Positions 1 to 27,045 are shown, numbered from the stretch's first letter. The stretch is 64,000 nt of DNA from Candidatus Campbellbacteria bacterium (GCA_002747955.1 PDQZ01000009.1:949-64948); one strand, 5' to 3'. Notes: generated from the letters alone by a model not told the origin. Translations and numbers: made by a program.

Positions 1-311
1 AATTCAAAGAAGCAATTTTAAATCTTTTGAAAAAAGAAAATTATATTGCAGATTACAAAGTATTGAAAGGGGATGGGGTAAAGAAAAACATTAGAATTAC
101 TTTATCATACGATCAAAAAGGAAATTCAAAAATTACAGATGTAAAAAGAATTTCAAAACTTTCAAAAAGAGTTTATTACGGATACAAAGATATTTTACCT
201 GTAAAATATGGAAAAGGACTTTTAGTTCTTTCAACTCCAAAAGGTATTATTTCAGATAAACAAGCAAAAAAAGAAAAAATTGGTGGAGAAGCTTTGTTTA
301 AAGTTTGGTAG
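1..311 (+). CDS. rpsH: 30S ribosomal protein S8, 5'-truncated by window edge
   Basis: C-terminal S8-like sequence (..LSTPKGIISDKQAKKEKIGGEALFKVW); precedes L6/L18/S5 as in spc operon. Confidence 0.85.
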   Translation, partial: FKEAILNLLKKENYIADYKVLKGDGVKKNIRITLSYDQKGNSKITDVKRISKLSKRVYYGYKDILPVKYGKGLLVLSTPKGIISDKQAKKEKIGGEALFKVW

Positions 312-3952: not shown

Positions 3953-3998
3953 ACATAAAGAATGTAAAACAAAAATCAGAAAAAATAGAAGAAAAAAC

Positions 3999-4022
3999 AA
4001 AAAAGCCTTCGGCTTTTTTGTT
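3999..4022. terminator. rho-independent terminator hairpin after secY
   Basis: aaaaagccttcggcttttttg : GC stem, UUCG loop, T-run. Confidence 0.7.
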
Positions 4023-4450
4023 TTTTTTAAGTATTTAATGGTCCCCGAAAATTGCTTCGCAATTTTCGGGGAATTTTTAAAGAAAAGACCTGTTTAACCT
4101 TACTTTTTCCACATAGTTTTTTAAATTTTTTTGACAAAAAGAATAAAAACTGCTATTTTTAATATATGAGTAATTTAAAAACAAAACAAAATATTCTCTT
4201 TGTATTTGGGCACTGGTTTAAAAACTGGGGGAGTTTTGTTTTTAAAAAAAATCTATTTATGCAAAAAGTTTAAAGTCTAAAATAAAAAACTAAAAATAAA
4301 TAAATTTTGAAATTTAATAAAACAAAACTTCCCTGCGGGAAGTTTTGTTTTATTTAAATAGTATTTTGCTTTAAGATAAAATATATTTTTGTTTTAAAGG
4401 AAAATATTATTATTTTCCAAGTCGTTCTTTAAAAATTAAAAGGTGAAAAA

Positions 4451-4633
4451 ATGAAAGACCAAAAAGACCCAGAGATGGGAACAAAAGATGGGATTGTTCT
4501 TGAGGAAACACAAACTTTAAGAACAAGTGTTGAAACAGATACATCGGAAAATCAAAGTGAAGGAAATTTTGGGATAAGTTGTTCTGAACCCACCCCTTGT
4601 TTTGGAGCAGATGATTACGAAGGGCTTTTTTAA
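4451..4633 (+). CDS. small acidic hypothetical peptide (60 aa) with Cys-containing C-terminus
   Basis: RBS aaaggtgaaaaaATG; co-directional and 15 bp upstream of next gene; no recognisable domain. Confidence 0.4.
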   Translation: MKDQKDPEMGTKDGIVLEETQTLRTSVETDTSENQSEGNFGISCSEPTPCFGADDYEGLF

Positions 4634-4648
4634 GTCAAGGAGTTTAAA

Positions 4649-5401
4649 ATGGATATGAAAAAGTTTTACGTTAAGAAATCTTCCTGCCCACAAGAGCAAC
4701 TGTTTTGGAACAGAGAAAATGGACTTCATCTGGAAGTGGAAGAATATTTTCACAAAAAAGGGTACTTTATTCCAAGCTTTCTAAAAACAGAAAATCCAAA
4801 TGGAAGACTAAATGCTTTTTCTGTCAGGCATATTGCAACTTACAGAAACGAAGACAAAGCATTTTTAAATCTTGCAACTACAATGTTTGGTTTAAATCCA
4901 ATTTGGCTTGAGTATCAACAAGATAAATACACTCAGCATTCAAAGCCAAAAACTTCAAATTTGATTTTGAATACTGGCGGAGAAAGAAAGTTGAAAATTG
5001 CTTGCCCTGCAAAAAATGATGGAAAAAAGTTAAATCAAATCCAAACTAATTTTGGAAAAAGTTTAGTTGATTTCCATCACACTTTGTGGAGTTCTTTACC
5101 ACATTCTGGTATTCGCAAGAAATTTGATTTTTCAGATTTTTTAAAGCAGTTTGGAAGTGCTGAAGATTATTATTTTTATGATTTAGCGCTTTCTGTGGCT
5201 CATGGAGTTTTGTTCAAAGATTTTCACGGAGAGCACAAGCTTTCTTCAAAAGGTTCAAAAGAATTTACCAGAAAAATTGTTGAACCTGCTTTTGAAAAAG
5301 TTGTTAAAACTTTTGGAGTTTCTCCTGTTGTAGTACAGTTTTCATACCATCAAGGTTATGAAATTTATCCAAATTTGAAAATCCCAAAGTGTTTGCAATG
5401 A
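4649..5401 (+). CDS. hypothetical protein (250 aa)
   Basis: RBS aaggagtttaaaATG; long ORF with typical codon usage; no recognisable motif; terminator hairpin gtgcaaactcgtttgagtttgcac follows. Confidence 0.6.
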   Translation: MDMKKFYVKKSSCPQEQLFWNRENGLHLEVEEYFHKKGYFIPSFLKTENPNGRLNAFSVRHIATYRNEDKAFLNLATTMFGLNPIWLEYQQDKYTQHSKPKTSNLILNTGGERKLKIACPAKNDGKKLNQIQTNFGKSLVDFHHTLWSSLPHSGIRKKFDFSDFLKQFGSAEDYYFYDLALSVAHGVLFKDFHGEHKLSSKGSKEFTRKIVEPAFEKVVKTFGVSPVVVQFSYHQGYEIYPNLKIPKCLQ

Positions 5402-5512
5402 TTTTTTCACTTGTGCAAACTCGTTTGAGTTTGCACCTTTTTAAAGCAATAAAGTGTAAGTATTTTATTGTTTTTAGAGGTAAAATAAGTTACAATCAAT
5501 TAAATAAAAAAT

Positions 5513-6898
5513 ATGAAATTAAAATACAACAAAGAAAATCAAAAAGGTTTCAGAATGATAAATTTTTATCAAAAAGAAAATCAAAAAAAAGAAGATACGA
5601 AGAATGAGAAATTTTTAAACTTTAAAACAGAAAAGATTGAAAGCATAAGTGATCTAGTGCTTTCTGTAAGAGGCGCTGTTTTAAGAGCCAAAAGTCACAA
5701 ACAAGAAAAAATTTCTTTTAATTATTCACAAATTCAAAATTTTGAAATTAAAAATGTTTCAGAAAGTTTAAAGGCAAAACTTTTTGCTGAAAATATTTTA
5801 CTTTCTTGGTATAAATTTGATAAATACAAAACCAAAAAAGAAAATAGTTTAAAAGAAGTTTTAGTTTTTGGAGATTTTTTGAAAACAGAAAAAGAAGGTT
5901 TTAAAAAAGGACAGAAAACAGCCGAAGCTGTGAATTTTGCTCGAGATTTAGCAAATACTCCAGCAAATGATATGACGCCTGATGTTTTTGTTTCCGAAGT
6001 AAAAAAAGAATTTAAAGGAAACAAAAAAGTAAAAGTTAAAGTTTTAAACCAGTCAGATATTTTAAAAAAGAAAATGGGTCTTTTAGATGCAGTTTCAAAG
6101 GGAAGTCTAAACAAACCAAAACTTTTAGTTTTAGAATATTTTAATGCTAAAAATAAAAAAGAAAAACCAACAGTTTTAGTGGGAAAAGGAGTTTGTTATG
6201 ATACAGGCGGACTTTCTTTAAAACCCACAGACGGAATGGTTAATATGTCAAAAGATATGACAGGGGCAAGTGTTGTAGTTTCTGTTTTGAAAAATTTAAT
6301 TTCTTTAAATTTAAACAAAAATATTGTGGTTGTAACGCCACTTGTTGAAAATTCTGTTTCTGGAAATTCTTATAGACCAGGTGATATTTTAAAATCAATG
6401 TCTGGAATTACGGTTGAAGTTTTAAACACAGATGCTGAAGGTCGGTTGATTTTAGCTGACGCGATTACTTATGCTAAAAAGTATAAACCAAAAATGTTGC
6501 TTGATGTTGCCACTTTAACAGGAGCAGCCTTGATGGCAGTTGGGGAAAATGCAACAGTTTTTATTACTCAAAATGATGAACTTGAAAATACTTTAAGAGA
6601 GATTGGGCAGGAAACTTTCAACAGAGTTTGGAGACTTCCAAGTTGGGCAGTTTATGAAAAAAAGTTAAAAAGCAATTATGCAGATATTGTAAATACTGCT
6701 ACAACAAAATGGGGTGGAACAATTACAGCGGGAATGTTTTTGTATCAGTTTGTGAAAGATTATAAAAAAGATGAGCCAAAGTGGGTCCACTTTGACATGG
6801 CTCCAAGAATGGAAAGTGTTCCAGAAGATAGTTTAGAAAAAGGTTCAACTGGGGAGCCCGTGAGTTTGATTGTTGAATTTTTAAAGAAAAATGTTTAA
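5513..6898 (+). CDS. pepA: leucyl aminopeptidase, M17 family
   Basis: NTDAEGRLILADAITYA M17 active-site signature; ..VGKGVCYDTGG.. motif. Confidence 0.9.
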   Translation: MKLKYNKENQKGFRMINFYQKENQKKEDTKNEKFLNFKTEKIESISDLVLSVRGAVLRAKSHKQEKISFNYSQIQNFEIKNVSESLKAKLFAENILLSWYKFDKYKTKKENSLKEVLVFGDFLKTEKEGFKKGQKTAEAVNFARDLANTPANDMTPDVFVSEVKKEFKGNKKVKVKVLNQSDILKKKMGLLDAVSKGSLNKPKLLVLEYFNAKNKKEKPTVLVGKGVCYDTGGLSLKPTDGMVNMSKDMTGASVVVSVLKNLISLNLNKNIVVVTPLVENSVSGNSYRPGDILKSMSGITVEVLNTDAEGRLILADAITYAKKYKPKMLLDVATLTGAALMAVGENATVFITQNDELENTLREIGQETFNRVWRLPSWAVYEKKLKSNYADIVNTATTKWGGTITAGMFLYQFVKDYKKDEPKWVHFDMAPRMESVPEDSLEKGSTGEPVSLIVEFLKKNV

Positions 6899-6963
6899 GG
6901 GTTTTAAACTTTGAAAAACCTGAAAAAAGCTTCGCTTTTTTCAGGTTTTTGTTTTTTTTGGAA

Positions 6964-6992
6964 TTGACAAAATATGTAAAAAGATTTATAAT
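6964..6992 (+). promoter_or_regulatory. sigma70-like promoter (TTGACA-17bp-TATAAT) upstream of P-loop kinase gene
   Basis: ttgaca at 6964-6969, 17-bp spacer, tataat at 6987-6992; follows terminator 6905-6945. Confidence 0.5.
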
Positions 6993-7024
6993 AATGCAGG
7001 ATTATTTTATTAACTTAAATAAAA

Positions 7025-7450
7025 ATGGAGAAAAAAATGTATCCAAACAAAACGGTTTACATAATGCGTGGAGTGAGTGGGTCTGGAAAATCTCATGAAG
7101 CAAAAATGATGGCATTTACTTACAATGGTGTTGTTCATTCAACCGATGATTTTTTTGTTAAAAATGGAAAATATCAATTTGATAAAGAAAAATTAAAAGA
7201 AAATCATAAAAAGAACCAAAAGGCTTTTTTAAAAAGTCTTAAAATGGGTATCAGAGTGGTTATTTGCGATAACACAAACATTAAGCTTGACCATATGAAG
7301 CCATATGAAAAAATGGCTTTGACGCATGGTTATGACCTGGTGTATGTCACAATGCCACATCCAGACCCTGCTGTTGCTGCAAAAAATAACATACACAACG
7401 TTCCAGAATTTGTTATAAGAAAACAGATTGAGCAGTGGGAAAAAATGTAA
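7025..7450 (+). CDS. P-loop NTPase / putative polynucleotide-kinase-like kinase (AAA_33-like)
   Basis: Walker A GVSGSGKS near N-terminus, ..VVICDNTN.. Walker-B-like; alternative start ATG 7037 has GGAG 8 nt upstream. Confidence 0.6.
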   Translation: MEKKMYPNKTVYIMRGVSGSGKSHEAKMMAFTYNGVVHSTDDFFVKNGKYQFDKEKLKENHKKNQKAFLKSLKMGIRVVICDNTNIKLDHMKPYEKMALTHGYDLVYVTMPHPDPAVAAKNNIHNVPEFVIRKQIEQWEKM

Positions 7451-7630
7451 ATGAAAACAAAACGGGAACATGGAAGTTCTCGTTTTTTAAATTTTAAATT
7501 AAATTAAAATTGACATTATTTTTTAAAATGTTAAAATAATTTTAGGTTTTTATATATAAAAACAGCAGTTTTTTCCGAAAGGAAAAAACTGCTTATATAT
7601 AATTTTTCTTTAATCTAACAGGAGAAAGAG

Positions 7631-8224
7631 ATGGAAGGAATAGTTGATGTTATGAAAGTGATTGATCCAGTACAGAGATTGTACATCACAGGAACGGTAA
7701 CACAGGAGGTTACAGAAGCTTTTTTAGACACAATAAATAAAATGGAGGCAGATTATGGTAGCCCTGATTTAATTTTAGAGATTGATTCGATGGGTGGTAA
7801 TTGGGAAGATTGTAAGTCTATTTGTTGTACTATTGAAAAGTACAAGGGAAGAATTTTTGGTTTAGGAACTCTGAATTGCTCTTCTGCTGCTTTTTTTATT
7901 TTACAAAAATGTTTTTATAGGTCAGCTTATGAAAATTCAAAAATAGTTGTTCATGAAATTGCACTTTCAGGTATTCCAGAAAATAGGCTGACTGCAAGTG
8001 TTTTACAGAATCTTTCTTCTGGGAAAAGAAATGGATTGCATAAGAAGGTTGACGAAATTATTGCTTCACTTCAAAAAGATAATAAAAGAATTGCAAAATT
8101 TCTTTCTGAAAGAAGTGGGCTTTCAACCCAAGCAGTTCGGAATATGATGAGGTCCGAGCATTCTGTAGATCCGAAAAACCTTTTAGAAAAAGGGTTTTTG
8201 GATGAAATTGTTTATGCTTTTTAA
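7631..8224 (+). CDS. ClpP-family (S14) serine protease-like protein, divergent
   Basis: Collinear with ClpP: IDSMGG (cf INSPGG), NCSSAAFFIL (cf GQAASMGAFLL), VVHEIALSG (cf MIHQPLGG), C-terminal GFLDEIV. Confidence 0.5.
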   Translation: MEGIVDVMKVIDPVQRLYITGTVTQEVTEAFLDTINKMEADYGSPDLILEIDSMGGNWEDCKSICCTIEKYKGRIFGLGTLNCSSAAFFILQKCFYRSAYENSKIVVHEIALSGIPENRLTASVLQNLSSGKRNGLHKKVDEIIASLQKDNKRIAKFLSERSGLSTQAVRNMMRSEHSVDPKNLLEKGFLDEIVYAF

Positions 8225-8267
8225 AGCAGTGCCGCGCAAACGAAGTTTGCGCGGCTATATTTTAATC

Positions 8268-9023
8268 TTACTTTTTTATTTCTACAAATCTATATTTATC
8301 AAACTGGTCTTTTAAAAATTTAAATTCAGAATAATTTTTATTTTCCTGTAACATTTTTTGAATATCATCTTTTTGCTGTTGATCAAATTCAATATACATT
8401 TTTCCGTTTTCTTTTAAATATTTAAAACCTTGGTCAATTAGTTTTTCTATAAAATAGAGACCTTTATTTTTTGCAAAAAGAGCATTTGGATCTTCAAAAT
8501 TTAAAACCGATTTTTGAACTTTTTCTTTTTGATTTTGTGGAATATAAGGTGGGTTTGCAATAATTAAATTATATTTTTTATTTATATTTTCAAAAATATC
8601 AGAGCAAATGACTTCTGATTTGTTTTCAAAATCTTTGATATTTTCTTTTAAATTAATCTGAATTTGTTTTAAGTAGTTTTGATTGATTTCTGAAAAATGA
8701 ACTTTTGTTTTTGGACAATTTTTTAAAATAGAAACTCCAATACAACCAGAACCTGAAAAAATATCTAAAACATCAAGCTTTTCATTTTCTTTTTGATTTA
8801 TATTTTTAATAATTTCAGAAACTAGAAACTCAGTTTCGTCTCGGGGAATTAAAGGTTTGTAAGACAAATCAATTTTGCAGTTTAAAAATGGACGGTTTCC
8901 GATTAAAAAATCAAGAGGATAACCTTTTTTGAGTTTTTCTAAATCGGCCGAAAATGCTTCGCATTTTCGGCTTTTGTATTTCTCATCCAAAAGCCATTTT
9001 TCTTGTCTTTTTTCTAAATTCAT
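8268..9023 (-). CDS. prmC: release-factor glutamine N5-methyltransferase PrmC/HemK family
   Basis: SAM motif ..DIFSGSGCIGVSI.. and NPPY motif (IIANPPYI). Confidence 0.75.
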   Translation of the reverse strand: MNLEKRQEKWLLDEKYKSRKCEAFSADLEKLKKGYPLDFLIGNRPFLNCKIDLSYKPLIPRDETEFLVSEIIKNINQKENEKLDVLDIFSGSGCIGVSILKNCPKTKVHFSEINQNYLKQIQINLKENIKDFENKSEVICSDIFENINKKYNLIIANPPYIPQNQKEKVQKSVLNFEDPNALFAKNKGLYFIEKLIDQGFKYLKENGKMYIEFDQQQKDDIQKMLQENKNYSEFKFLKDQFDKYRFVEIKK

Positions 9024-9081
9024 TTTTATATTATATCAGAAAAAAAACTCCTTGCATTTTATATTATGCAAGGAAATTTAG

Positions 9082-9405
9082 TTAAACTTTTTCAGGAATC
9101 TCTTTTAATGTCTTGGACATTAACCAAGACATAACGGCCATCTTCTCTTCAGAGCTTAAGGTGCGAGTTTCATGCACCTTTTTAATAAAGCGAATTTGCC
9201 TTTTTTTTCTGAAAAAGTTTTTTTCTATAAAAAGGTCTCCCTTTATAACATTTTTGTTTTTTATAAGTTTTTTTACAAAAACAACCCAGGGGTTATTTAT
9301 GTAAAAAAACTCCTTAGGTACTTTATTTTTTAAACTGTGGATTGGAACAAAACCAAAGTTTATTTCAGTGCCCTCAAATAAAGGTTTGTTTTTTCTTTTC
9401 AACAT
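9082..9405 (-). CDS. hypothetical protein (108 aa)
   Basis: ORF with GGAGG RBS 5 nt upstream of ATG at 9405 (minus strand); basic protein, no known motif. Confidence 0.5.
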   Translation of the reverse strand: MLKRKNKPLFEGTEINFGFVPIHSLKNKVPKEFFYINNPWVVFVKKLIKNKNVIKGDLFIEKNFFRKKRQIRFIKKVHETRTLSSEEKMAVMSWLMSKTLKEIPEKV

Positions 9406-9542
9406 TTTTGCCTCCAATATCAAGATAAGTTCTTATTTCATTATATAATTTTTAAAATATAAGTCAATAATTTTCTTTACTTTTTGTTAAAAAAGGGTAT
9501 AATACTGCATAGTTTTTTAATTCACTAACATAGGAGAAAAAA

Positions 9543-10064
9543 ATGTTATTAACAAATTTTGAGATGGTAGATGGAGGGCTTTTAGACGAAAACATTCGTG
9601 AGAATGTTTTTGTTGATAAAAGTTACTCTATTTTTAGAGTAAACCTAAGCTCATCTTTTTTCTCAAACAGAAAATATGAAGCTTATGGTGACTGGAATTT
9701 TTGGTTGCAAAAAGACAGACTTGCACCAAATGGGGTTATGTGTAAACTTGGCTCTGGAGAAATTGAATTTTTTCAAGATGTTAACACCTACCATAATAAT
9801 TTGATTTACAGAGTCAAAGCAAAAAGATTTGGAAAAATAACGCAAAACAATAAATTTTCTCAAGTTAAATATCAAATGCAACTTGGAGAATATATTTATT
9901 TTTTCATTGTCTTTTCTCTGCCCGAATACATAAATTTTGATATTTATGATAAAAAGGGTAAAGTAATTGATTTTGTATGTCAAAAATACCAAAAACCACT
10001 AAGGCGTAAAACAAGTCTTGTGACTGAAAAAATATTTAGACACAGAACAAAACCTGCTTTTTAA
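9543..10064 (+). CDS. hypothetical protein, paralog A of a tandem pair
   Basis: Shares MLLTNF.., YGDW(N/D)FW, GSGEIEFF, VKYQ.QLGEY.YFFIVFSL with the ORF at 10267; RBS aggagaaaaaaATG. Confidence 0.7.
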   Translation: MLLTNFEMVDGGLLDENIRENVFVDKSYSIFRVNLSSSFFSNRKYEAYGDWNFWLQKDRLAPNGVMCKLGSGEIEFFQDVNTYHNNLIYRVKAKRFGKITQNNKFSQVKYQMQLGEYIYFFIVFSLPEYINFDIYDKKGKVIDFVCQKYQKPLRRKTSLVTEKIFRHRTKPAF

Positions 10065-10174
10065 AAGCAGGTTTTTTTAAAAGTATAAACACACACTAGT
10101 TCTTGGTTGGTTGTCTTTACTTCAAGTTTTTCTTTTGAAGCCTCGGGGCTATAAAAAAAATTTCTAAAATTCAT
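10061..10174 (-). pseudogene. duplicated promoter + 5' fragment of rsmE (first ~18 codons conserved), remnant 37-codon ORF
   Basis: About 76 bp at 10121-10196 nearly identical (few mismatches) to 50353-50428, which is the rsmE 5'UTR plus N-terminus; encodes MNFRNFFYSPEASKEKLE then diverges. Confidence 0.6.
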
Positions 10175-10266
10175 AAATACATTTTAGCATAAAACAAACA
10201 AATTTTCTTTACTTTTTTTCTAAAAACTATTAAATTTATGTTAAATTATTTCCAGGGGAGGAAAAA

Positions 10267-10740
10267 ATGTTATTAACAAATTTCAAAATTAAAAACGGTG
10301 GGTACTTACAAGGTAAATCAAGAGAGTATGTATATGTTGATGAAAAATACGCTCTTTTTAAGGTGGATCCACACGACCCTTCTCTTCACAAAGAAAAATA
10401 TGCTGCTTACGGAGATTGGGATTTCTGGGAGCATAGTGGCGGTATAATCACAAATGGGGTTATGCACAAAATTGGCTCTGGAGAAATTGAATTTTTTCCA
10501 GATACTAATTGTTATCATAATATTTTGATTTATAGAATCAAGGAAGAGGATTTCGGAAAAATAGTGGAAAATAATAAATATTCTCGAGTTAAATATCAAG
10601 TTCAACTTGGGGAGTATGTTTATTTTTTCATTGTCTTTTCTTTGTCTGACCATATAGATTTCTGTATTTATGATGAAAAGGGTAAGTTGGTTGATGCATT
10701 ATCTAAGAGATATAAAAAGCCACAAAAACGTAAAATTTAA
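10267..10740 (+). CDS. hypothetical protein, paralog B of a tandem pair
   Basis: Roughly half of residues identical to 9543..10064 with the same N-terminus and motifs; RBS gggaggaaaaaATG. Confidence 0.7.
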   Translation: MLLTNFKIKNGGYLQGKSREYVYVDEKYALFKVDPHDPSLHKEKYAAYGDWDFWEHSGGIITNGVMHKIGSGEIEFFPDTNCYHNILIYRIKEEDFGKIVENNKYSRVKYQVQLGEYVYFFIVFSLSDHIDFCIYDEKGKLVDALSKRYKKPQKRKI

Positions 10741-10812
10741 AAACAAACCAAAACCTGCTTGCAAGCAGGTTTTCTTTATTGGACCTTTAAAATATGGTAT
10801 AATACTTACATT

Positions 10813-13323
10813 ATGTTAAATTATATTAGAAATTTATTTGATGAAAATAAATCAATTTTGAAAAAAACTTATCCTATTGTAAAAAAGATAAATTCTTATG
10901 CAGATGAAATGAAAAATTTGTCTGATCAAGAACTTGAACAAAAAACTCAAGAATTCAAAAAAGCTTTAAAAGATGGTAAAACTTTGGACGACATTTTACC
11001 TGAAGCTTTTGCTGTGGTAAAAGAAGTTTCAACAAGAGCAACTGGACTTACTCCATACGACGTGCAGTTGATTGGTGGTATTTTGTTACATCAAGGAAGA
11101 ATTGCTGAGATGAAAACAGGTGAAGGTAAAACTTTGGTTGCTACACTTCCTACTTATTTAAACGCTTTGGAGGAAAAAGGAGCTCACATTGTAACTGTAA
11201 ACGACTATCTTTCAAGAAGAGATGCGGTTTGGGTAGGACAAATTTTTGCAAAACTTGGGCTTTCTGTCGGGGTGATAAACTCAGACAACCAATCTTATTT
11301 ATACGACCCAACTTACAGGGAACAGTTTGACGAAGCTCGTGATGAACTTGGATCTTTCAAAGTGGTTTATGAATTTCTAAAACCTTGTGATAGGAAAGAG
11401 GCTTACAAAGCAGACATTACTTACGGAACAAACTCAGAGTTTGGTTTTGACTATTTGAGAGACAACATCACAGCAGACAAAGAAGATTTAAGGCAAAGAG
11501 ATTTAAACTTTGCAATTGTCGATGAGATTGACTCAATTTTAATCGATGAAGCTCGTGTGCCGTTGATTATTTCAGCCGGAGCAAGTGAAAACCGACAAAT
11601 TTATATTACTTTTGCTGAAATTGCAAAACAGTTAAATGAAGGGGAAGATTTTGAAAAAGACGAAAAAACAAAATCAATTATTATTAAAGACAGCGGAATT
11701 GATAAAGCTGAAAAAGCACTTGGAATTGACAACTTGTATTCTGAAAAAGCAATGGTTTTGGTTGATCACTTAGAAACTGCTTTGAAAGCTAAAGCTTTGT
11801 ATAAAAAAGAAAAAGAATATGTTATCAAAAACGGTGAAGCGGTTATCGTTGATGAATTTACAGGAAGAATGCAAGACGGAAGACGATGGTCAGATGGTTT
11901 GCATCAAGCTATTGAAGCTAAAGAAGGGCTTGAGATTAAAGAAGAATCAAGAACTTTTGCATCTGTAACATACCAGAACTTCTTTAAGATGTATAAAAAA
12001 CTTTCAGGAATGACCGGAACTGCTGAAACATCAAAAGAAGAGTTTTTCAAAGTGTATCATTTAGATGTTGTGGTTGTGCCAACAAACAAACCTGTAACCC
12101 GAGTTGATAAAAAAGATTTGATTTTTGCAACCGAAAATGGAAAGTTTGAAGCTATTGCAAACAAAATTCAAGAGCTTTATGAAAAAGGGCAACCTGTTTT
12201 GGTCGGAACGGCTTCTGTTGAAAAATCAGAACTTCTTTCAGAATTTTTGGTTAAAAAAGGAATCAAACACACTATTTTGAATGCTAAAAACCACGAAAGT
12301 GAAGGAGAAATTATTGCAAACGCAGGTAAAAAATCAGCCGTAACGATTGCTACAAATATGGCAGGGCGTGGGGTTGATATTAAGCTTGGTGGAGCTCTTG
12401 CGTCTGAAGAGGAAAAGCAAGAAGTTCTGAAAAATGGAGGACTTTATATTTTAGGTACAGAAAGACACGAATCAAGAAGAATTGACAACCAGCTTCGAGG
12501 ACGTTCTGGACGTCAAGGGGATGTGGGAGAAACTCAATTTTATATTTCACTTGATGACCACTTAATGCGAGTTTTTGGAAATCAAGAATTTATGAAAAAA
12601 ATTCTTCTGAAAAAAGTTGAACTTGAAGGTGGGGAAGACAAACCGATTGAGTCAAAAATCATGTCTTCAAATGTTGAAAAAGCTCAGGAGAAAATTGAAG
12701 GATTTCATTTTGACGCCCGAAAACATGTTTTGGAATACGACGATGTTTTGGATGTTCAAAGAAAAGCTATTTACAAAAAAAGACGAGATATTTTACTTGC
12801 TGAAAACGAAGATATTTTTGAATTTTTTAAAAGTGAATTTAAAGATAACCAAGAATTTTTGGATCAAACAAATCAGAAAATTGAAAAATTGAATCGAGAT
12901 GACTTTTTGAACTTTATTAAAAAAGTTTATTTAACTTCAATTGATACAATTTGGGTGGAGCACTTAAACGTGATGGAACATTTAAAGTCAGCTGTTTCTT
13001 TGCAATCTTACGGGCAAAAAGATCCGGTAGTGGAATATAAAAAAGAAGCTAAAAAATATTTTGAAAATATTTTTGAAGATATTAAAGGAAATGTTTTGAA
13101 AAATATAAACGCTGTAGACCCAGATCAGATTTTGGCAAATTTGGAAAGACAAACAGAGATTGAAAGAAAAGCCAAAGAAGCAGTTAAAAATTCAGAAAGG
13201 GCAGAAGAAGGAAATAAAAAGAAAAAACCAATTGTAAAAAAGAATGAGGAGAAAATTGGGAGAAATGATAAGTGTCCATGCGGAAGTGGAAAGAAGTATA
13301 AGAACTGCTGTATGAAACACTAA
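10813..13323 (+). CDS. secA: preprotein translocase ATPase SecA
   Basis: DEAD-like motor motifs (..MKTGEGKTLVATLP.., ..DEIDSILIDEARVPLIIS..), C-terminal zinc finger CPCGSGKKYKNCC; start at ATG 10813 just after a tataat (tatggtataat). Confidence 0.9.
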   Translation: MLNYIRNLFDENKSILKKTYPIVKKINSYADEMKNLSDQELEQKTQEFKKALKDGKTLDDILPEAFAVVKEVSTRATGLTPYDVQLIGGILLHQGRIAEMKTGEGKTLVATLPTYLNALEEKGAHIVTVNDYLSRRDAVWVGQIFAKLGLSVGVINSDNQSYLYDPTYREQFDEARDELGSFKVVYEFLKPCDRKEAYKADITYGTNSEFGFDYLRDNITADKEDLRQRDLNFAIVDEIDSILIDEARVPLIISAGASENRQIYITFAEIAKQLNEGEDFEKDEKTKSIIIKDSGIDKAEKALGIDNLYSEKAMVLVDHLETALKAKALYKKEKEYVIKNGEAVIVDEFTGRMQDGRRWSDGLHQAIEAKEGLEIKEESRTFASVTYQNFFKMYKKLSGMTGTAETSKEEFFKVYHLDVVVVPTNKPVTRVDKKDLIFATENGKFEAIANKIQELYEKGQPVLVGTASVEKSELLSEFLVKKGIKHTILNAKNHESEGEIIANAGKKSAVTIATNMAGRGVDIKLGGALASEEEKQEVLKNGGLYILGTERHESRRIDNQLRGRSGRQGDVGETQFYISLDDHLMRVFGNQEFMKKILLKKVELEGGEDKPIESKIMSSNVEKAQEKIEGFHFDARKHVLEYDDVLDVQRKAIYKKRRDILLAENEDIFEFFKSEFKDNQEFLDQTNQKIEKLNRDDFLNFIKKVYLTSIDTIWVEHLNVMEHLKSAVSLQSYGQKDPVVEYKKEAKKYFENIFEDIKGNVLKNINAVDPDQILANLERQTEIERKAKEAVKNSERAEEGNKKKKPIVKKNEEKIGRNDKCPCGSGKKYKNCCMKH

Positions 13324-13760
13324 AAAACTTTAAAAACCAGCGGCTAACTTTGTCAGCTTCGCAAAAAAAATCCCTCACCGTACTGTTCGTACGGCTCGGG
13401 TTTTTTTTGTTCGCTTCCGCGTTATCCATCTGGTTTTTAAAGTTTTTACAAAATTTTAAAAATGAGCGACTAACTTCGTTGGCTTCATAAAATTATTTCT
13501 CAACGTACTTCAAGTACGTCTCAATAATTTTATTCGTCGCCTCGTTATTCATCTGGTTTTTAAAGTTTTTACAAAACTTGAAAAATTGGCAGATTGCTTT
13601 GTTGTCTTCATAAAAAAATTTCTCAACGTAATAACACATACGTATCCAAATTTTTTTACTCGACGCCTCGCACTCTACTCAATTTTTAAAGTTTTTACAA
13701 AACTTGAGAAATTGGTGAACCTCATCTAATTTTTAGCGCTTCATTGTGAAAGTAGAAAAT
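13324..13760. repeat. tandem array of a modular ~115-125 bp intergenic repeat (3 full units + partial 4th); each unit has a cgta..tacg hairpin followed by a T-run
   Basis: Units share the aaagtttttacaaaacttgaaaaat(t)g junction, agc..ctaactttgttggcttc, (c/t)tca(a/c)cgta-N5-9-tacg hairpin, tttttt, cg.cgcctcg; homologous arrays at 54738 and 58366. Confidence 0.8.
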
Positions 13761-13860
13761 AAAAAATTTTAAAAACAAAAAGCCAAATAACACTGCGCTT
13801 TATTTGGCTTTTTTTTGTATAATTTTCACTTGCTTTTTTATTTAAAAGTGTTATAATTAA

Positions 13861-13985
13861 AAAAGCTTGGGGGTGCACCTCTCTAAAACATCTATGTTTT
13901 CAGACAACACGACCCTTACTTGCACCTCCAAGCTTTTTGTCCACCACTTCTGTGAGTGGTTTTTTATTTTGAATTTTTTTAAAAA
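13861..13985 (+). ncRNA. candidate structured RNA / 5' leader upstream of ppa (long-loop hairpin plus terminator-like hairpin)
   Basis: aagcttgggggtgcac..45 nt with nested hairpin..gtgcacctccaagctt, then ccact-tctgtg-agtgg + T-run immediately before the ppa promoter/start. Confidence 0.25.
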
Positions 13986-21475: not shown

Positions 21476-21526
21476 AAAGTGAATTTAAAAAGCAAAATCA
21501 GGCGAAGCCTGATTTTGCTTTTTAAA

Positions 21527-21913
21527 TTACGGTGATGTACCTTGTAAAATAGGAACATACCCATAACCAATAATACAAATATATGGACCGCAGGTTATCA
21601 TGCAGGGAACAAGTGCTGGTGCCAAAGTTCCTTTTCCCCATTGACCTGGGTGTGAAAAACCACCAAAGTTAGCAAAAGCACGACCTCTTGATTCAGGTGT
21701 TTGCATAATAGGCATTGGAATAGGGGGTGATAAAAAATAATTTACAGATCCGTAAGTGACAGGACAATACTGAAAACTTGTCACTGAACCACCGAAAAGC
21801 AAAAGAGATGCTGAAGTTTTAGTTTCTTTTAAATTTAAAGTAAAAAAGAAGATCAAAAGTAAAATAAAAACGATTGATTTTAAGAAAATATTATTTTTTA
21901 GGTTTAATATCAT
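21527..21913 (-). CDS. small secreted Cys/Gly/Pro-rich hypothetical protein
   Basis: N-terminal signal/TM; divergent to the surface-protein locus; visibly higher GC than its surroundings. Confidence 0.5.
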   Translation of the reverse strand: MILNLKNNIFLKSIVFILLLIFFFTLNLKETKTSASLLLFGGSVTSFQYCPVTYGSVNYFLSPPIPMPIMQTPESRGRAFANFGGFSHPGQWGKGTLAPALVPCMITCGPYICIIGYGYVPILQGTSP

Positions 21914-21952
21914 AAAAATATTGTAACATATTTTTTAATTATGTGATAGAAT

Positions 21953-23005
21953 ATGAATATGAAAAAAATTTTTAACTTTTTTAAAAAAAATTTTACAACG
22001 ATACTTTATATTTTAATTTTTTTAACTTTAATTTTTTTAATTTATAAAAACTTTACGAAAGTCAAGCAGTATCAAAAACTTGAAAAAATAAAAACAGATT
22101 ATCGGAATACTAAAAAACTTGAAAAAAAAGAAAGTGATGATACAGACAATGACGGGCTTTTGGATTGGCAAGAAATTATATATAAAACAGATATTGACAA
22201 CCCAGATTCTGATGGTGACGGTATAAATGATGGAGATGAAGTTAGGGATGGAACTAATCCCCTTTCTTTTAAAAATATAAAAAATGAAGAGATTGTGGTT
22301 GTTAAAGAAAGTGTTGAAAATATAGAAAAACAAATTGCAAAAAGAAGAAAAACTCAAAAGGAACAAGAAAATCAACAGTTTAAAATTAAAAAAATTAAAT
22401 TTAAATCAAATTTAACCCAAGAAGAAAAAGATCTTTTAGCAGGCTACGATCAAGAAAATATTTTAATTAAAAAAGACATGAATATTTTGGGAAAAGTTTT
22501 TTTAGAAAATACACATTCTGTAAATGCCACTGAAGAAAGTGAAAACATGTTTTTGTTGTTTAATAATTTACTTCCTTATTCTTATGAAAAATCACAAGAA
22601 ATTTTAAAAGAAAATAATAATTTAAAGTTCGCAGAACAATTACCGGCTTATAGGGAAGTTACCGAAAGTGAAATATCAAAAATGAAAGCAAAAGCTATGT
22701 ATTATAAAAAAATTTCTGAACTTTTAAAAGAAAAAGAAAGTCAGTTGGAGTCAAAATTTTTTAATCAATATTATTTAAGTTTTTACAATACTTATAAAAA
22801 TGTTTATGTTTATCAAAGCGAACTTTTGGATTTTTATAAAAATGGAGAGGGTGATTATGAAAAAATAATAGAAAAAATTAAAAAGTATACTCAAGCAGGG
22901 CTTGAAATGGCAGACACTTATGCTTCTGTTGATAGAATGATTGATACAAGAGAACTAAAAATCAGCCCAAATGAGCCAGCTTCTTATTTTGATTTGAAAG
23001 TGTAA
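21953..23005 (+). CDS. membrane-anchored protein with thrombospondin-type-3-like Ca-binding DxDxDG repeats (paralog 1)
   Basis: N-terminal TM; DTDNDGLLDWQEIIYKTDIDNPDSDGDGINDGDEVRDGTNP; paralogous to 23103..24056. Confidence 0.65.
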   Translation: MNMKKIFNFFKKNFTTILYILIFLTLIFLIYKNFTKVKQYQKLEKIKTDYRNTKKLEKKESDDTDNDGLLDWQEIIYKTDIDNPDSDGDGINDGDEVRDGTNPLSFKNIKNEEIVVVKESVENIEKQIAKRRKTQKEQENQQFKIKKIKFKSNLTQEEKDLLAGYDQENILIKKDMNILGKVFLENTHSVNATEESENMFLLFNNLLPYSYEKSQEILKENNNLKFAEQLPAYREVTESEISKMKAKAMYYKKISELLKEKESQLESKFFNQYYLSFYNTYKNVYVYQSELLDFYKNGEGDYEKIIEKIKKYTQAGLEMADTYASVDRMIDTRELKISPNEPASYFDLKV

Positions 23006-23102
23006 GATTAAGTTTGGCCCGAAAATAGCGAAGCTATTTTCGGGTTTGTTTTTTTAAAAAAACTTTGTGAAGAGACAAAAAAAGTGTTACAATGTCTAAT
23101 AT

Positions 23103-24056
23103 ATGAATAATAATTTTAAAAAATTTTTGCCTTCAAGAAAAGTGGTAGCTTTTGTGATAGTGCCATTGTTTTTTGTTGTTTTATTTATTTTGATAGAATC
23201 TTATTTTAAAAAAGGTGAAATAGAAAAAAAAGTTGCTAAAGAAAAACTTGAAAAATCAATTAAATATAATGTTTCAGAAAAAGATACAGATGACGATGGG
23301 CTTTTAGACTGGCAAGAAAGACTTTATAAAACAGATGTAAATAATCCTGATACGGATAATGACGGAGTTTTAGATGGAAAAGAAGTTAAAAAAGGAACAG
23401 ATCCGACAGACACATTTAATAGTAAAAAATCACAAAATGATGTTAAAAAAATTAATGAGGATACTGAAAAGCAAATTTTAAACAAAGAATTAAATGTGAC
23501 AGAAAAAGTTGCAAGAGAGCTGTTTATGAAAACAGTTGATATTAAGAAGGAAGGACTGAATAAAAATATAGGGGCTTTGAATTTTGCAGCTGAAGAGCTT
23601 TATGAAGAAAGTGATATTTTTAAAATAAGCAAAATTTTAACAGAAAAAGATTTAAAAATTTCAGAGTCTGAAAATTTATATGATTTTAAGCAAAAATTCA
23701 ATAAAGTTTTACTTAAAAGAAGTAAGGTGAGTAATTTAGAAGCAGAATGGGTTGCTGCTTACAAGTTTATAGTGGAAAAAAAGGATGAAGGTAAAGAAAG
23801 TTTAGAGAAAAATTTACACTTTTATATTGTAACCCAAAAAGAGTTGTTGAAGTTGGAAGTTCCTAACGATAAAATTTTTATTAAAGTTTATCTAGATTAT
23901 TTAAATTCTTATTTTTTCATTATTGAATACATAGAACAGGTTTTAAATTATAAAGAAGATCCACTTAAAGCACTAGCATTTTTTGAATCTTTTGATAAAA
24001 TAAATGATATAATTATTAAAAGAGGTAAAGAAGTATATAAATACTTAAATGATTAA
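23103..24056 (+). CDS. membrane-anchored protein with thrombospondin-type-3-like Ca-binding DxDxDG repeats (paralog 2)
   Basis: N-terminal TM; DTDDDGLLDWQERLYKTDVNNPDTDNDGVLDGKEVKKGTDP. Confidence 0.65.
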   Translation: MNNNFKKFLPSRKVVAFVIVPLFFVVLFILIESYFKKGEIEKKVAKEKLEKSIKYNVSEKDTDDDGLLDWQERLYKTDVNNPDTDNDGVLDGKEVKKGTDPTDTFNSKKSQNDVKKINEDTEKQILNKELNVTEKVARELFMKTVDIKKEGLNKNIGALNFAAEELYEESDIFKISKILTEKDLKISESENLYDFKQKFNKVLLKRSKVSNLEAEWVAAYKFIVEKKDEGKESLEKNLHFYIVTQKELLKLEVPNDKIFIKVYLDYLNSYFFIIEYIEQVLNYKEDPLKALAFFESFDKINDIIIKRGKEVYKYLND

Positions 24057-24064
24057 ATAAAATA

Positions 24065-26410
24065 ATGCAAAATAATATGAAACTTAGCTTCTCAAAAAAA
24101 ATATTTAAACTATTTATTTTTACAGTAACATTTATATTTCTAATGTTTCCTGTTTTTTTGGTAGATCAACAAGTAAGTATGTTAAGTGCGCAAACAAATA
24201 CTCAAACACAAAAACCAGAAACTTATAGAAACGATGGTTCAAGAGTTGATGGTAGGGGAAATGCAGGCTCTGATGTTTTAGGGGCTGCGGCTAGCTGTTT
24301 AGGTTCTGCTTTTGGAATGATTGCAAGTAGTATGGCAGCTAATACCATTTCTGTTCCATCATCAGACAAGCCAACAGAATCTTCTACAGGAATGAATGCA
24401 ATTAAAGACTGTATTTTAGATGGTGTAGCTAATGCTTTAAAAAGAACAGTTATCAGATCTTTGGTTTCAACGACTGTAAACTGGATCAATGGTGGTTTTG
24501 ATGGGAACCCCTACTATGGTAGAAACTTAGAAAAAGCTTTTAGAAGAACAGTTGATGATATTTTAGGGGAAGTTATTTATCAAAATGAAAATTTGAAATT
24601 TTTATGTTCAGAATTTGAATTTCCTATTAAAGTTGCTTTGCATTTACAATTTTCACAAGCTCAATTTCAAGAATTTGATTATACTCCAAAATGTAAAATA
24701 TCAGATGTGGCAGACAATATTGAAGGAGCTATTCAAGATGGAATAGATTATTATTCAAATATAGATAATTTTTTCAGTATTACAACAAATGGTTCTGATA
24801 ATGTGTACGAAGTGTACTTTAAAACCTCAGCAAGTATTCAAAAAGCAATTGAAAAAAGAAATGAAGACAAAGAAAGGGAGCAGAGTGTAAACAATGGATT
24901 TTTTGGAGAGAGAAGATGTTATGACGGAGGTGAGTATGATGGATCTTTGGAAAGAAGGGATATTTGTCCAATTACAACTCCCGGAAGAATTATGGCTGAA
25001 AGGCTTGCTTCTGCTACAAACACAGAAACAAATGAGCTTATTACAGCCGATGAATTTGATGAAATTATTGGAGCCATTTTAAATCAACTTTTCCAAAAAC
25101 TTCTTCAAAAAGATGGAATTCGAGGTATGTCACAAACAAGTTCAGAAACAGGCCGAACTGGTCTTGAGGATTATCAACAAACGGGTGATGAGATTGATAA
25201 TGAAGAGTATGGTGGACTGGTGGATGACTATGCCGATATGTCATTTAACCCAAGAGCACCAGAAATTATGATAAAAACGCTTGAGAGCATGATACAAACG
25301 CTTGATGATGCAATTGGAGTATTTAGGGATGCAAAAGCACAATGTTCATCAATTCCCCTGGGTAATTTGCGTAGTATGGGCAGTAGGCGATATCAAGAAT
25401 TTAGGCAAAGAACAATAGATAGTGGTTCGGTTGTTCAAAGCTGGTTAAATGAAGCTGAAGTTAAAAAAGGAAAATATGAAGAAAAATTAAGATTGGTTGG
25501 TGAATACAAGACACAATTTATAGAAATTTCTCAAAGAGTTAAAGATGCGAACATTGCAGAAAGAAATCAAATAATGGAAGAAGCCTCAAAAGATCCTATC
25601 GTTGCCTTCATTAATAGTGTTGGTAAAGTTGCAAGGGACAAAATTAATCTAGAAAGAGATCTTGATGAAAAAGTAAATGGTAAATATTCATATACAGGTT
25701 CTTCAACTCCTGTTAAAAAAGGTGGTGCTAATGGATACCGCCAATATTGTGTAAAGTTTGGACATACTTCAAGTTCTAGAAGTTGTAGCGACAGAGAAAC
25801 AATATGTTCTCCTAGTTTGTTGTTTAGCGAAATTACAAGTGACGGAGACCATTCTTTGAGAATTAGTTACGATCCTATTCCTGATATTGAAAATATAAAT
25901 AGTTCTGAATACGACTTAACATCAAGTACTGTTGGTAAATGTGTTTCAGCTGATAATCAACAGCGTGACTTTGGACAAGAAGAAGAACTATTTTTGACAA
26001 AAAAAGGGAATACTGTTTATGTTCACAAAAATGGTAAATGTGTTATCGGATCAATGTTTGTAGACCAAACATGTAATTTATCTTATGCAGACAGTGAAGT
26101 GTATTTGAATGCAAGTTCATTGGTTGATGATGAAAATACAAGACGAATTGTTATTAGTACAGAAGATGATTGTGATGGTGTTGAAGAAGAATTTTCTTGT
26201 ACCACAAAAGATGGAAAAGGGTATGAAGATGGACAAAGAATTGACACTTTATATACCTGCGATGATGAAGAGCAAAAGTGTTATTCATACAGAAGTGTAA
26301 GGTGTAGAGAAAAATCATTTGTTGCGTGTTCAGGAGATAGGAGTCTTTTTGGTGTTTATGCTGAGAAAAAGTATCAAAATGAAGAAAGGGGAAGTTGTGA
26401 AGGATTTTAA
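24065..26410 (+). CDS. large (781 aa) secreted/anchored protein with Cys-rich C-terminal region; compositionally atypical
   Basis: N-terminal hydrophobic segment; about 18 Cys concentrated in the last ~250 aa; GC-richer codons than neighbouring genes; no recognisable catalytic motif. Confidence 0.65.
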   Translation: MQNNMKLSFSKKIFKLFIFTVTFIFLMFPVFLVDQQVSMLSAQTNTQTQKPETYRNDGSRVDGRGNAGSDVLGAAASCLGSAFGMIASSMAANTISVPSSDKPTESSTGMNAIKDCILDGVANALKRTVIRSLVSTTVNWINGGFDGNPYYGRNLEKAFRRTVDDILGEVIYQNENLKFLCSEFEFPIKVALHLQFSQAQFQEFDYTPKCKISDVADNIEGAIQDGIDYYSNIDNFFSITTNGSDNVYEVYFKTSASIQKAIEKRNEDKEREQSVNNGFFGERRCYDGGEYDGSLERRDICPITTPGRIMAERLASATNTETNELITADEFDEIIGAILNQLFQKLLQKDGIRGMSQTSSETGRTGLEDYQQTGDEIDNEEYGGLVDDYADMSFNPRAPEIMIKTLESMIQTLDDAIGVFRDAKAQCSSIPLGNLRSMGSRRYQEFRQRTIDSGSVVQSWLNEAEVKKGKYEEKLRLVGEYKTQFIEISQRVKDANIAERNQIMEEASKDPIVAFINSVGKVARDKINLERDLDEKVNGKYSYTGSSTPVKKGGANGYRQYCVKFGHTSSSRSCSDRETICSPSLLFSEITSDGDHSLRISYDPIPDIENINSSEYDLTSSTVGKCVSADNQQRDFGQEEELFLTKKGNTVYVHKNGKCVIGSMFVDQTCNLSYADSEVYLNASSLVDDENTRRIVISTEDDCDGVEEEFSCTTKDGKGYEDGQRIDTLYTCDDEEQKCYSYRSVRCREKSFVACSGDRSLFGVYAEKKYQNEERGSCEGF

Positions 26411-26425
26411 TTAAAAATAAACAAT

Positions 26426-26932
26426 ATGTTAATATTTACAGAAGAACAAGTTAAAAATGCTTATGATAATTCAAGTGAAGTGATGAAATCTTTGTTACTT
26501 GAAAAGTGGGTTATTGAGGATGCAACTTTTTTGGGGAGAAAATACAAGTTAAGAATGGATAAGGTTGGAAACATGAATAAGTTGATTTCTTATGTTATGT
26601 TGAATTTGTTGCCAATGTCTCGTTTTGCAGAGTACTTGAAAAAAGAACTTTTACTTGATGATCAAACAACTCTTGCGTTGACAAAAGATTTGGATAAAAA
26701 TATTTTCCAAAAAATCAAACAAGAAGTGTTGTATTATAATAGTGAAAAAAAGAAAAAGACAGATGTTAAGTCTATTTTTGAAGAAAAACAAGAAATAAAA
26801 GAAGAAAAAGATCTAAAAGGGGAAGTTAGAGATTATGGTGATATTCTAGATTCAAAAAAACAAAAAGAGGGGGCTGGTAAAAAAGAAGATGAAGACACAC
26901 TTGATCCTTATAGAACTTTTATTGATGATTAA
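26426..26932 (+). CDS. hypothetical protein (168 aa), charged C-terminus
   Basis: ORF tightly following the 781-aa gene; no motif. Confidence 0.5.
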   Translation: MLIFTEEQVKNAYDNSSEVMKSLLLEKWVIEDATFLGRKYKLRMDKVGNMNKLISYVMLNLLPMSRFAEYLKKELLLDDQTTLALTKDLDKNIFQKIKQEVLYYNSEKKKKTDVKSIFEEKQEIKEEKDLKGEVRDYGDILDSKKQKEGAGKKEDEDTLDPYRTFIDD

Positions 26933-27045
26933 AAATGTAGAAAAAATGTTTAAAAAAGCAAGTTAAAAAACTTGCTTTTTTATTGTTTTTGTTTTAAAAT
27001 ATAGGGCACTGTATTAAGAATTAAATATAGTAAATAAAATATTTT

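Follow-up and report, generated by a model that had tools for sequence, protein, structure and literature searches.

A locus of TSP3-type membrane proteins and a large anchored Cys-rich protein in Candidatus Campbellbacteria, probably allied to the type IV secretion gene cluster of Patescibacteria

Five adjacent genes, designated p128, p350, p317, p781 and p168 after their products, lie in a 64,000-nucleotide stretch of DNA from a Candidatus Campbellbacteria bacterium (GCA_002747955.1 PDQZ01000009.1:949-64948; this whole stretch is referred to below as the window). They raise the question of whether they form a free-standing surface locus, an island imported from elsewhere, or part of an envelope system that is already known from related bacteria. 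A preliminary description, made from the window sequence, had proposed an undescribed host-attachment or surface module built around two membrane proteins with thrombospondin-type-3-like (TSP3) repeats and the large Cys-rich protein p781. We find the surface and adhesion part of this idea plausible, but not the notion of a free-standing unknown locus. The p781-family genes of relatives are linked to the core genes of a type IV secretion system (T4SS), and the locus therefore belongs to the published T4SS neighbourhood of Patescibacteria (PMC12102498). We consider it probable that the locus is the Patescibacteria-specific, extracytoplasmic or envelope accessory half of an MPF-FATA-like T4SS cluster, here separated from its VirB6/VirB3/TrsD/VirB4 core, and gene order in the relatives suggests a physical association of this module with the T4SS.

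Gene order around p781-family genes in Patescibacteria

A scan of one genome per GTDB species yielded at least 370 confirmed p781-family loci, of which the best 80 were analysed. All of these are Patescibacteria by record title except for one contig (the taxon names used here are the records' own). Open reading frames (ORFs) were called with translation table 11 and clustered, and hidden Markov models (HMMs) were built for the resulting families; ten loci were without an intact anchor ORF, UGA appears to be recoded in at least one of the relatives (L001), and the synteny counts are limited to loci with enough flanking sequence. The consensus order begins with a ComM-like gene, a LysM-M23 hydrolase gene on the opposite strand, UvrD and KsgA. 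These are followed by an optional gene for a small Cys/Gly/Pro-rich protein, again on the opposite strand, by one or two genes for TSP3 proteins with a transmembrane (TM) helix, by the p781-family gene and by a gene for a polytopic VirB6/TrbL-like protein of ~730 aa. The order is completed by genes for an acidic protein of ~200 aa (family cl5, to which p168 belongs), PrgI/VirB3, a TrsD-like protein of ~210 aa and VirB4.

This order was found with high regularity. The p781-family gene is preceded by a TSP3 gene in 67/68 loci, with two TSP3 paralogs in 12/68, and the small Cys protein is encoded upstream in 16/61. Downstream, the VirB6-like gene is present in 59/64 loci and the cl5 gene in 54/61. 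Median gaps are 3 nt between TSP3 and p781-family genes, 6 nt between p781-family and VirB6-like genes and 6 nt between VirB6-like and cl5 genes, then 57 nt from cl5 to PrgI, 3 nt from PrgI to the TrsD-like gene and 5 nt from there to VirB4. Spacing of this kind is operon-like. Around the distant homologs P0002 and P0003 (27-30% identity) the TSP3-TSP3-large gene order is preserved as well, so that synteny across Patescibacteria, which the preliminary description had named as something to check, is conserved. The same description had recognised no secretion-system signature; this is correct inside the window but not in the relatives, where the genes 3' of the p781 family, from VirB6-like to VirB4, constitute one.

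The identity of these neighbours was established by profile comparisons. PrgI passes its Pfam cutoff, VirB4 was recognised as P-loop_TraG at 1.4e-26, the hydrolase combines M23 and LysM domains, and the VirB6-like protein has a weak TrbL match in Pfam. Against the prototype plasmids pCF10 and pSK41, the VirB4 family (cl9) matched PrgJ at 7e-55 and TrsE at 3e-46, while the best partners of the TrsD-like (cl6), PrgI (cl7) and VirB6-like (cl4) families were TrsD, TrsC/PrgI and TrsL/PrgH, respectively. The single contig whose title is not that of a Patescibacterium (L013; JBLHQB010000004.1) is labelled Patiriisocius sp. (Flavobacteriaceae) and carries the Patescibacteria order of M23, UvrD, KsgA, TSP3, p781 family and VirB6-like gene onward; it is probably misbinned, and P0189, also labelled Flavobacteriaceae, may be a similar case.

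The T4SS of Patescibacteria was previously described as MPF-FATA-like (Quinonero-Coronel et al. 2025, PMC12102498). The published inventory comprises VirB4, TrsD, VirB3/PrgI, VirB6, VirB1-like hydrolases and VirB2-like pilins; the VirB1-like hydrolases (M23/LysM) go with virB4 in Paceibacteria, KsgA is found near virB4, adhesins such as PrgB were not detected and VirB8 is mostly undetectable (PMC12102498). Thrombospondin, TSP3 and PF18884 are not mentioned in the main text or text supplements of that study, and in the literature searched we found no paper that connects thrombospondin repeats with the T4SS of Patescibacteria. By this evidence, accessory components of Paceibacteria-type clusters that have so far been uncharacterised are represented by the four families in the window.

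Architecture of the encoded protein families

The domain layout of p781 is given in Table 1. Its cysteines do cluster near the C-terminus as first noted, but the figure of about 18 in the last ~250 residues was too high, there being 20 in total and 13 in that region. The public annotation of this protein (P0001, 755 aa) starts at Met27 and thereby cuts off a KK-plus-hydrophobic N-terminal anchor (window 24065-24142). The 781-aa start, located 8 nt past the p317 stop, agrees with the N-terminal anchors of homologs and with the family-wide median gap of 3 nt.

A word-indexed search with p781 returned three matches, the distant ones having the conserved N-terminal domain (N-domain) in common, and gave the impression of a near-orphan. 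This was ruled out by an exhaustive HMMER search with an N-domain alignment, which retrieved 4,526 representatives of 50%-identity clusters at E<=1e-3, a count that may in part be inflated by the profile's coiled/helical region. The matches centre on profile positions ~30-350; those of the top 150 hits and of the 1,342 representatives at E<=1e-30 rest on the N-domain. In the window protein this domain contains the motifs WINGGF, FLCS, TTN, GFF..C, CPITTPG and ADEFDEIIGA; the corresponding family motifs are WINxGFxGxP, FLCSPF, CTLS, TTxPxNNPYG, GxGFxS..C, C...TPG and LADEFDEIIGAL. The N-domain had no match in Pfam, NCBIfam, PDB sequences or PDB folds, and tblastn detected it neither in the full set of PLSDB plasmids nor in phages. 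It defines an unannotated family.

Members of the p781 family vary C-terminal to the N-domain, where they extend for a further 180-800 residues. An F5/8-type-C (discoidin) lectin domain is found there in 14/64 members and a bacterial surface Ig-like domain in 5/64, the rest being mostly unannotated. Among the same 64 members, Pfam also identified TrbI (VirB10-type) in one and DUF4141 in two; as neither was present in the N-domains or in the ten longest family members scanned, they must lie in the variable regions of other members. An AlphaFold2 (AF2) model of p781, built from a 64-sequence alignment, has a mean predicted local distance difference test (pLDDT) score of 64.8. Long helices were modelled at residues 366-393, 398-428, 440-494 and 497-538, with pLDDT >90 for most of ~390-560; the Cys-rich beta-containing region reaches 63-81 over residues ~700-760, and the linkers are disordered. 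No LPXTG-like motif is present in p781.

In most members, the signal or anchor is followed by a second hydrophobic segment composed of small residues (Gly/Ala/Ser), for example VLGAAASCLGSAFGMIA and AAGGIAGCAVAGVAIGA. Its KD17 value exceeds 1.2 in 39/63 members, and a conserved Cys often lies inside it. The segment might cross the membrane a second time, form a re-entrant or partner-inserting helix, or act in the manner of a fusion peptide. Elsewhere in the window (47395-49665), a 756-aa protein with an unusually high GC content of 0.433 at second codon positions (GC2) has a bacterial surface Ig-like match near the cutoff (26 bits vs 27); it is probably another surface protein, and its sequence is unrelated to that of p781.

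The TSP3-like repeats and the paralogy of p350 and p317, both part of the preliminary description, were confirmed. The curated cutoff of PF18884 TSP3_bac (25 bits) is passed by p350 (43.0 bits, in two stretches) and by p317 (27.5 bits), and the two proteins are 30% identical over 296 aa (E 4e-20). The HMM of the TSP3 family (cl0) matches p317 at 1.1e-36 and p350 at 3.4e-22, and ~45 full-length members of the p317 family were found. Loop residues D61, D63, D65, G66, D69, W70 and E72 are invariant or nearly so across the family, and the loops are predicted to bind Ca. The AF2 model of p317 (40-sequence alignment, mean pLDDT 85.2) consists of a long TM helix (residues 12-56), the two TSP3 loops and an all-helical bundle (residues 119-316) with pLDDT >90 over residues 190-316; this confidently modelled bundle takes the place of the coiled coils that had been expected after the repeats. 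A Foldseek comparison of the p317 fold with the PDB gave nothing below E 1, and the C-domain of the TSP3 family has no explaining match among Pfam, NCBIfam, PDB sequences or PDB folds.

For the two remaining proteins the reported composition was borne out: p128 is Gly/Pro/Cys-rich (10.2% G, 9.4% P, 4 Cys), and p168 is charged (D+E 20.8%, K+R 19.1%) and has no hydrophobic segment. Although p128 found only itself in a word-based search, it is matched at 7.9e-11 by the cl11 HMM built from related loci, which rules out that it is an orphan; cl11 is in turn related to cl18 (hhalign probability 95%). There was no Pfam match for p128 at E<=1 and none for the cl11/cl18 representatives at E<=0.01. We also rejected p128 as a VirB2-like pilin, given that it does not match PF04956/PF18895 and that its mature part is Gly/Pro-rich, not helical-hydrophobic. 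The cl5 HMM matches p168 at 6.5e-13. Neither p168 nor p128 has an explaining match in Pfam, NCBIfam, PDB sequences or PDB folds. DPY[RK] occurs within the last 25 aa of 31/62 cl5 members, as part of a short C-terminal motif DPY[RK]E-P-[ILV] whose p168 version is LDPYRTFIDD (window 26900-26932), and several other members end in a PRWG/RWS-type motif. The C-terminal motif of cl5 could be a docking or secretion signal.

The presence of one N-terminal hydrophobic segment in each of p128, p350, p317 and p781 agrees with the earlier account, as does the extracytoplasmic look of the module, to which signal or anchor segments, conserved Cys and the lectin and Ig-like C-termini of the p781 family all contribute. 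We propose that p350 and p317 would be bitopic proteins whose Ca-binding TSP3 loops lie just outside the membrane and carry a helical ectodomain, acting as Ca-stabilised, membrane-proximal partners. The N-terminally anchored p781 would form a stalk from its disulfide-containing helical N-domain and its long bundle, with helices of 50+ residues. This stalk would present a lineage-variable distal domain (a Cys-rich module here, a discoidin lectin or Ig-like domain in relatives) that may touch the host surface or cell wall; the architecture of p781 thus suggests an adhesin or stalk role. The p168 protein, with its conserved DPYR motif at the C-terminus, would be an acidic partner in the cytoplasm, and p128 a small secreted accessory protein.

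An alternative assignment keeps the T4SS association but sees in p781 and the TSP3 proteins wall-spanning or scaffold parts, analogous to VirB8/VirB10 or to a VirB5 tip, and not adhesins. It would accommodate the scarcity of detectable VirB8 homologs in Patescibacteria (PMC12102498), the bitopic nature and N-terminal anchors of both families, the TrbI match in one p781-family member and DUF4141 in two, and the fact that the membrane-proximal N-domain is the conserved part of the p781 family. However, a variable C-terminus with lectin or Ig domains is typically seen in binding proteins, and the families of the window showed no similarity to PrgL, TrsH or other proteins of the VirB8 type. The TSP3 proteins were specifically rejected as the missing VirB8, since p317 is all-helical past its TSP3 loops, not NTF2-like, and matches no PDB fold. 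We regard a scaffold or channel role as quite unlikely.

The locus in the window: separation from the core, transcription units and composition

Several observations weigh against the assignment of the window locus to a T4SS cluster. Within the 64-kb window there was no match to the VirB6-like, PrgI, TrsD-like, VirB4 and M23 HMMs or to a type IV coupling protein (T4CP); for the VirB4 HMM this holds at E<=0.1, with Pfam scans of the large window ORFs likewise giving none, and no gene matching the cl4, cl7 or cl6 HMMs adjoins the module, rpsL being next after p168. The window and four other loci (L001, L002, L003 and L005, its closest relatives) are the only ones without an adjacent VirB6-like gene. 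All five have two TSP3 paralogs and have retained the module, so that it may function independently of the core. The conservation of gene order around KsgA may in part go back to an ancestral arrangement of the chromosome, and no sequence or fold similarity to a known T4SS component or adhesin was found. As regards p781 itself, the N-domain was modelled as helical with moderate confidence (pLDDT about 40-80), and the membrane topology of the family is ambiguous because of the second hydrophobic segment.

The detached arrangement in the window favours an alternative, in which the locus is an autonomous surface, adhesion or envelope module that lies beside T4SS genes in most genomes through ancestral order near KsgA and the origin. 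Such autonomy would explain why the TSP3 pair and the p781 homolog are kept in the window and its four closest relatives, together with cl5 in the window and L001, why no T4SS core gene occurs within 64 kb, and why no protein annotated as thrombospondin appears in the published tables of the Saccharibacteria T4SS cluster. Against it stand the gaps of 3-6 nt that join TSP3, p781-family, VirB6-like and cl5 genes across many differently named lineages, and the position of cl5, which is kept in the window and normally lies between two T4SS genes (VirB6-like and PrgI). We consider autonomy unlikely and retain the view that the module belongs with the T4SS. This sublineage has either lost the core or come to carry it at a distance from the module. 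The entries of Table S1 of PMC12102498 that concern Campbellbacteria (17 mentions) include four genomes scored VirB4-positive, and no paralogs of the module were found elsewhere in the window.

The closest relatives showed further peculiarities. In L001 the order is KsgA, TSP3, TSP3, a split p781 homolog, the cl5 gene, rpsL and rpsG, with a TrwB/TraG-like T4CP gene four genes upstream of KsgA; L002 has TSP3, TSP3 and a p781 homolog. On L002, a 7-kb Logan contig, the region 3' of the module (3700-6983) contains Ala/Arg/Pro-rich ORFs overlapping on both strands, which suggests GC-rich DNA, and the assembly may be chimeric. In the Pacebacteria-labelled L003 (7507-10881) and L005 (6493-9675), the gene 3' of the p781 homolog encodes an acidic protein of ~100 aa, and the next one a protein of 1,060-1,124 aa that is mostly hydrophilic with a central Gly-rich hydrophobic stretch; this large protein matched none of the VirB6-like, cl5, TrsD-like, PrgI, VirB4, M23, TSP3 and small Cys HMMs. 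L001 (ENA ERZ25069786 ctg48643, genes 6089-13938) is a close relative whose ribosomal protein S12 is very similar to that of the window. It has 12 in-frame TGA codons, spread over eight genes, and no in-frame TAA or TAG. Four of nine aligned TGA positions correspond to Trp in the window, including the conserved W of LLDWQE and of VNWINGGF, and none to Gly; TGG occurs 3 times as opposed to 13 TGA, of which 12 are in-frame and at least one is a terminal stop. UGA thus appears to be read as Trp in L001 (code 4-like), unlike in Gracilibacteria and Absconditabacteria, where it is Gly. The window uses translation table 11.

A more far-reaching proposal, possible but doubtful in our judgement, is that the TSP3, p781 and cl5 families, with the small Cys/Gly/Pro protein, make up a previously unrecognised host-contact apparatus of the Paceibacteria-type T4SS that replaces the pilin arrays and VirB8-like parts of Saccharibacteria. 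The p781 family would then be the missing adhesin or tip, a Cys-stabilised helical stalk with rapidly diversifying lectin, Ig or Cys-rich heads, whose Gly/Ala-rich segment might enter the membrane of a partner. Genetic independence of this apparatus from the VirB4 core, and perhaps functional independence too, would have arisen in the Campbellbacteria-like sublineage.

The coordinates and strands first assigned to the five ORFs were exact in every case (Table 1). The locus is bordered by EF-P and KsgA at one end and by rpsL and rpsG at the other, and the wider surroundings consist of housekeeping genes (SecA, pyrophosphatase, M3 peptidase, SmpB, MurG).

Table 1. Positions of genes, protein regions and putative transcription signals of the locus, counted from the first nucleotide of the window
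Feature	Residues	Position (nt)	Strand	Description
KsgA		ends 21475	+	flanking gene
Terminator-like hairpin, bidirectional		21483..21528	.	between KsgA and the 3' end of p128; 20-pair stem plus T-run
p128		21527..21913	-	small protein with N-terminal signal or anchor, Gly/Pro/Cys-rich, 4 Cys; family cl11/cl18; locus tag CSB11_01875
p350		21953..23005	+	bitopic TM protein, paralog A; two TSP3-type Ca-binding loops (predicted), then helical C-terminal domain
p350, TSP3 loops	~62-104	22136-22264		
Terminator-like hairpin		23016..23046	+	directly 3' of p350; 14-pair stem (6 GC) plus T-run
Promoter-like site		23065-23093		between the p350 hairpin and p317
p317		23103..24056	+	bitopic TM protein, paralog B; TM helix, TSP3 Ca-binding loops (predicted), all-helical bundle; locus tag CSB11_01885
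p317, TSP3 loops	~59-103	23277-23411		
p781		24065..26410	+	large anchored protein: anchor, Gly/Ala segment, N-domain, helical bundle, Cys-rich C-terminal region; locus tag CSB11_01890
p781, anchor or signal	~12-37			
p781, second hydrophobic segment	71-87	24275-24325		Gly/Ala-rich
p781, N-domain	~105-352	24377-25120		5 conserved Cys
p781, long helical bundle	366-538	25160-25678		
p781, C-terminal region	562-781	25748-26407		Cys-rich, beta-containing; 13 Cys
p168		26426..26932	+	soluble, highly charged; cl5 family; C-terminal DPYR motif
Terminator-like hairpin, bidirectional		26951..26982	.	14-pair stem, T-runs on both strands; before rpsL
rpsL		27046		flanking gene

Terminator-like sites are strongly enriched across the region, with 11 found vs 1.8 expected from shuffles. 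Judging from the predicted hairpins, three transcription units are likely delimited, namely p128, p350 and p317-p781-p168. The hairpin after p350, together with the promoter-like site that follows it, suggests that p350 is transcribed apart from p317-p781-p168, the unit closed by the last hairpin, after which rpsL is next. The start codons of the divergent small Cys/Gly/Pro gene and the first TSP3 gene are 39 bp apart in the window (21913-21953) and 46 bp apart in two relatives (L003 3391-3438; L005 2344-2391). A gap of this size is too short for two conventional promoters with leaders, suggesting overlapping promoters or leaderless transcripts.

It had also been thought that p781 and p128 use visibly GC-richer codons than their neighbours, with horizontal acquisition as one explanation. 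We took the 67 genes of the window as baseline, with a mean GC of 0.297 (standard deviation, sd, 0.037) and a mean GC at third codon positions (GC3) of 0.200 (sd 0.045). Total GC is 0.337 (z 1.07) for p781 and 0.341 (z 1.18) for p128, just ~1.1 sd above the gene mean, and GC3 is ordinary or below average, at 0.182 (z -0.42) and 0.209 (z +0.20). The excess resides at codon position 2 (GC2 0.387 and 0.434) and hence stems from the content of Gly, Ala, Ser, Cys, Pro and Arg, not from codon choice. In an amino-acid-independent G-test of synonymous usage with simulated expectations, p128 ranked 61st of the 67 genes (z -0.56) and p781 seventh (z 4.0), in the same range as SecA, SecY, EF-Tu, SmpB and ribosomal protein genes. 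The modestly raised total GC and the rank of p781 are the features that a horizontally acquired, compositionally foreign island could claim, but the deviation of p781 is common to SecA, SecY and EF-Tu, and across the phylum the locus keeps its syntenic place between KsgA and housekeeping genes. GC3, codon usage and conserved vertical synteny refute a foreign origin, which is essentially excluded. All five are genuine genes, native to this genome.

Comparison with known systems

The T4SS of Patescibacteria is the first shown to be essential for its owner's growth. In a Saccharibacterium, epibiotic growth requires the cluster SEML1_0006-0019 (Wang et al. 2023, PMC10633639); the annotated products of this cluster are lysozyme, VirB4, PrgI, VirB6-like proteins, an NTF2-like protein and pilins, with no thrombospondin-type protein among them (PMC10633639). 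To the published inventory, which holds no adhesin and almost no VirB8, the present work contributes four families, conserved but so far unannotated, whose genes are linked in operon-like fashion to those of VirB6, VirB3 and VirB4; one family has thousands of members. An anchored stalk with variable lectin or Ig heads would make the p781 family a concrete candidate for host recognition, and the predicted Ca binding of the membrane-proximal TSP3 proteins lends itself to direct biochemical tests. Because the module is detached in this lineage, it provides a natural experiment on whether it can function without the ATPase core.

The shared neighbourhood with the published Patescibacteria T4SS consists, in the relatives, of KsgA, VirB6-like, PrgI/VirB3, TrsD-like and VirB4 genes and the LysM-M23 hydrolase gene, and the four gene families of the window lie directly upstream of or inside this cluster. 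The main text and text supplements on this system do not name TSP3-anchored, p781, cl5 or small Cys/Gly/Pro proteins as components. The Saccharibacteria cluster differs in having VirB2-like pilin arrays and an NTF2-like protein instead of the families of the window.

VirB5, VirB8 and VirB10 are bitopic or secreted envelope components encoded beside VirB6/VirB4, and VirB5 is helical and acts at the contact tip. No match to them was seen for the window families in sequence or Foldseek comparisons. Bacterial TSP3 repeats are known from OmpA-family proteins, MtsD and CglD, and the DxDxDGxxDxxE loops of the window proteins pass the PF18884 cutoff for such repeats. MtsD and CglD gave weak NCBIfam matches in the repeat region only, and many OmpA-type proteins likewise match the repeats only. 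The TSP3 proteins of the window, in contrast, have just two loops, placed immediately C-terminal to a single TM helix and ahead of a helical bundle specific to the family, and contain no OmpA, beta-barrel or gliding-motility domain.

A parallel in gene order is offered by pCF10 of Enterococcus, where the large surface proteins PrgA, PrgB and PrgC are encoded upstream of PrgH-PrgI-PrgJ (VirB6-VirB3-VirB4). Profiles of the four families were compared with all pCF10 Prg and pSK41 Trs proteins by hmmsearch and hhalign and gave noise only, whereas the positive controls worked. We accordingly rejected p781 as a Gram-positive T4SS adhesin or exclusion protein of the PrgB, PrgA, PrgC or pIP501 TraO type, as it has no Prg/Trs homology and no LPXTG. 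In its proposed architecture, p781 recalls PrgA, the structure of which is an elongated helical stalk with a distal domain; it differs from PrgA, PrgB and PrgC in being anchored N-terminally, in place of an LPXTG motif, and in sharing no sequence or profile similarity with them.

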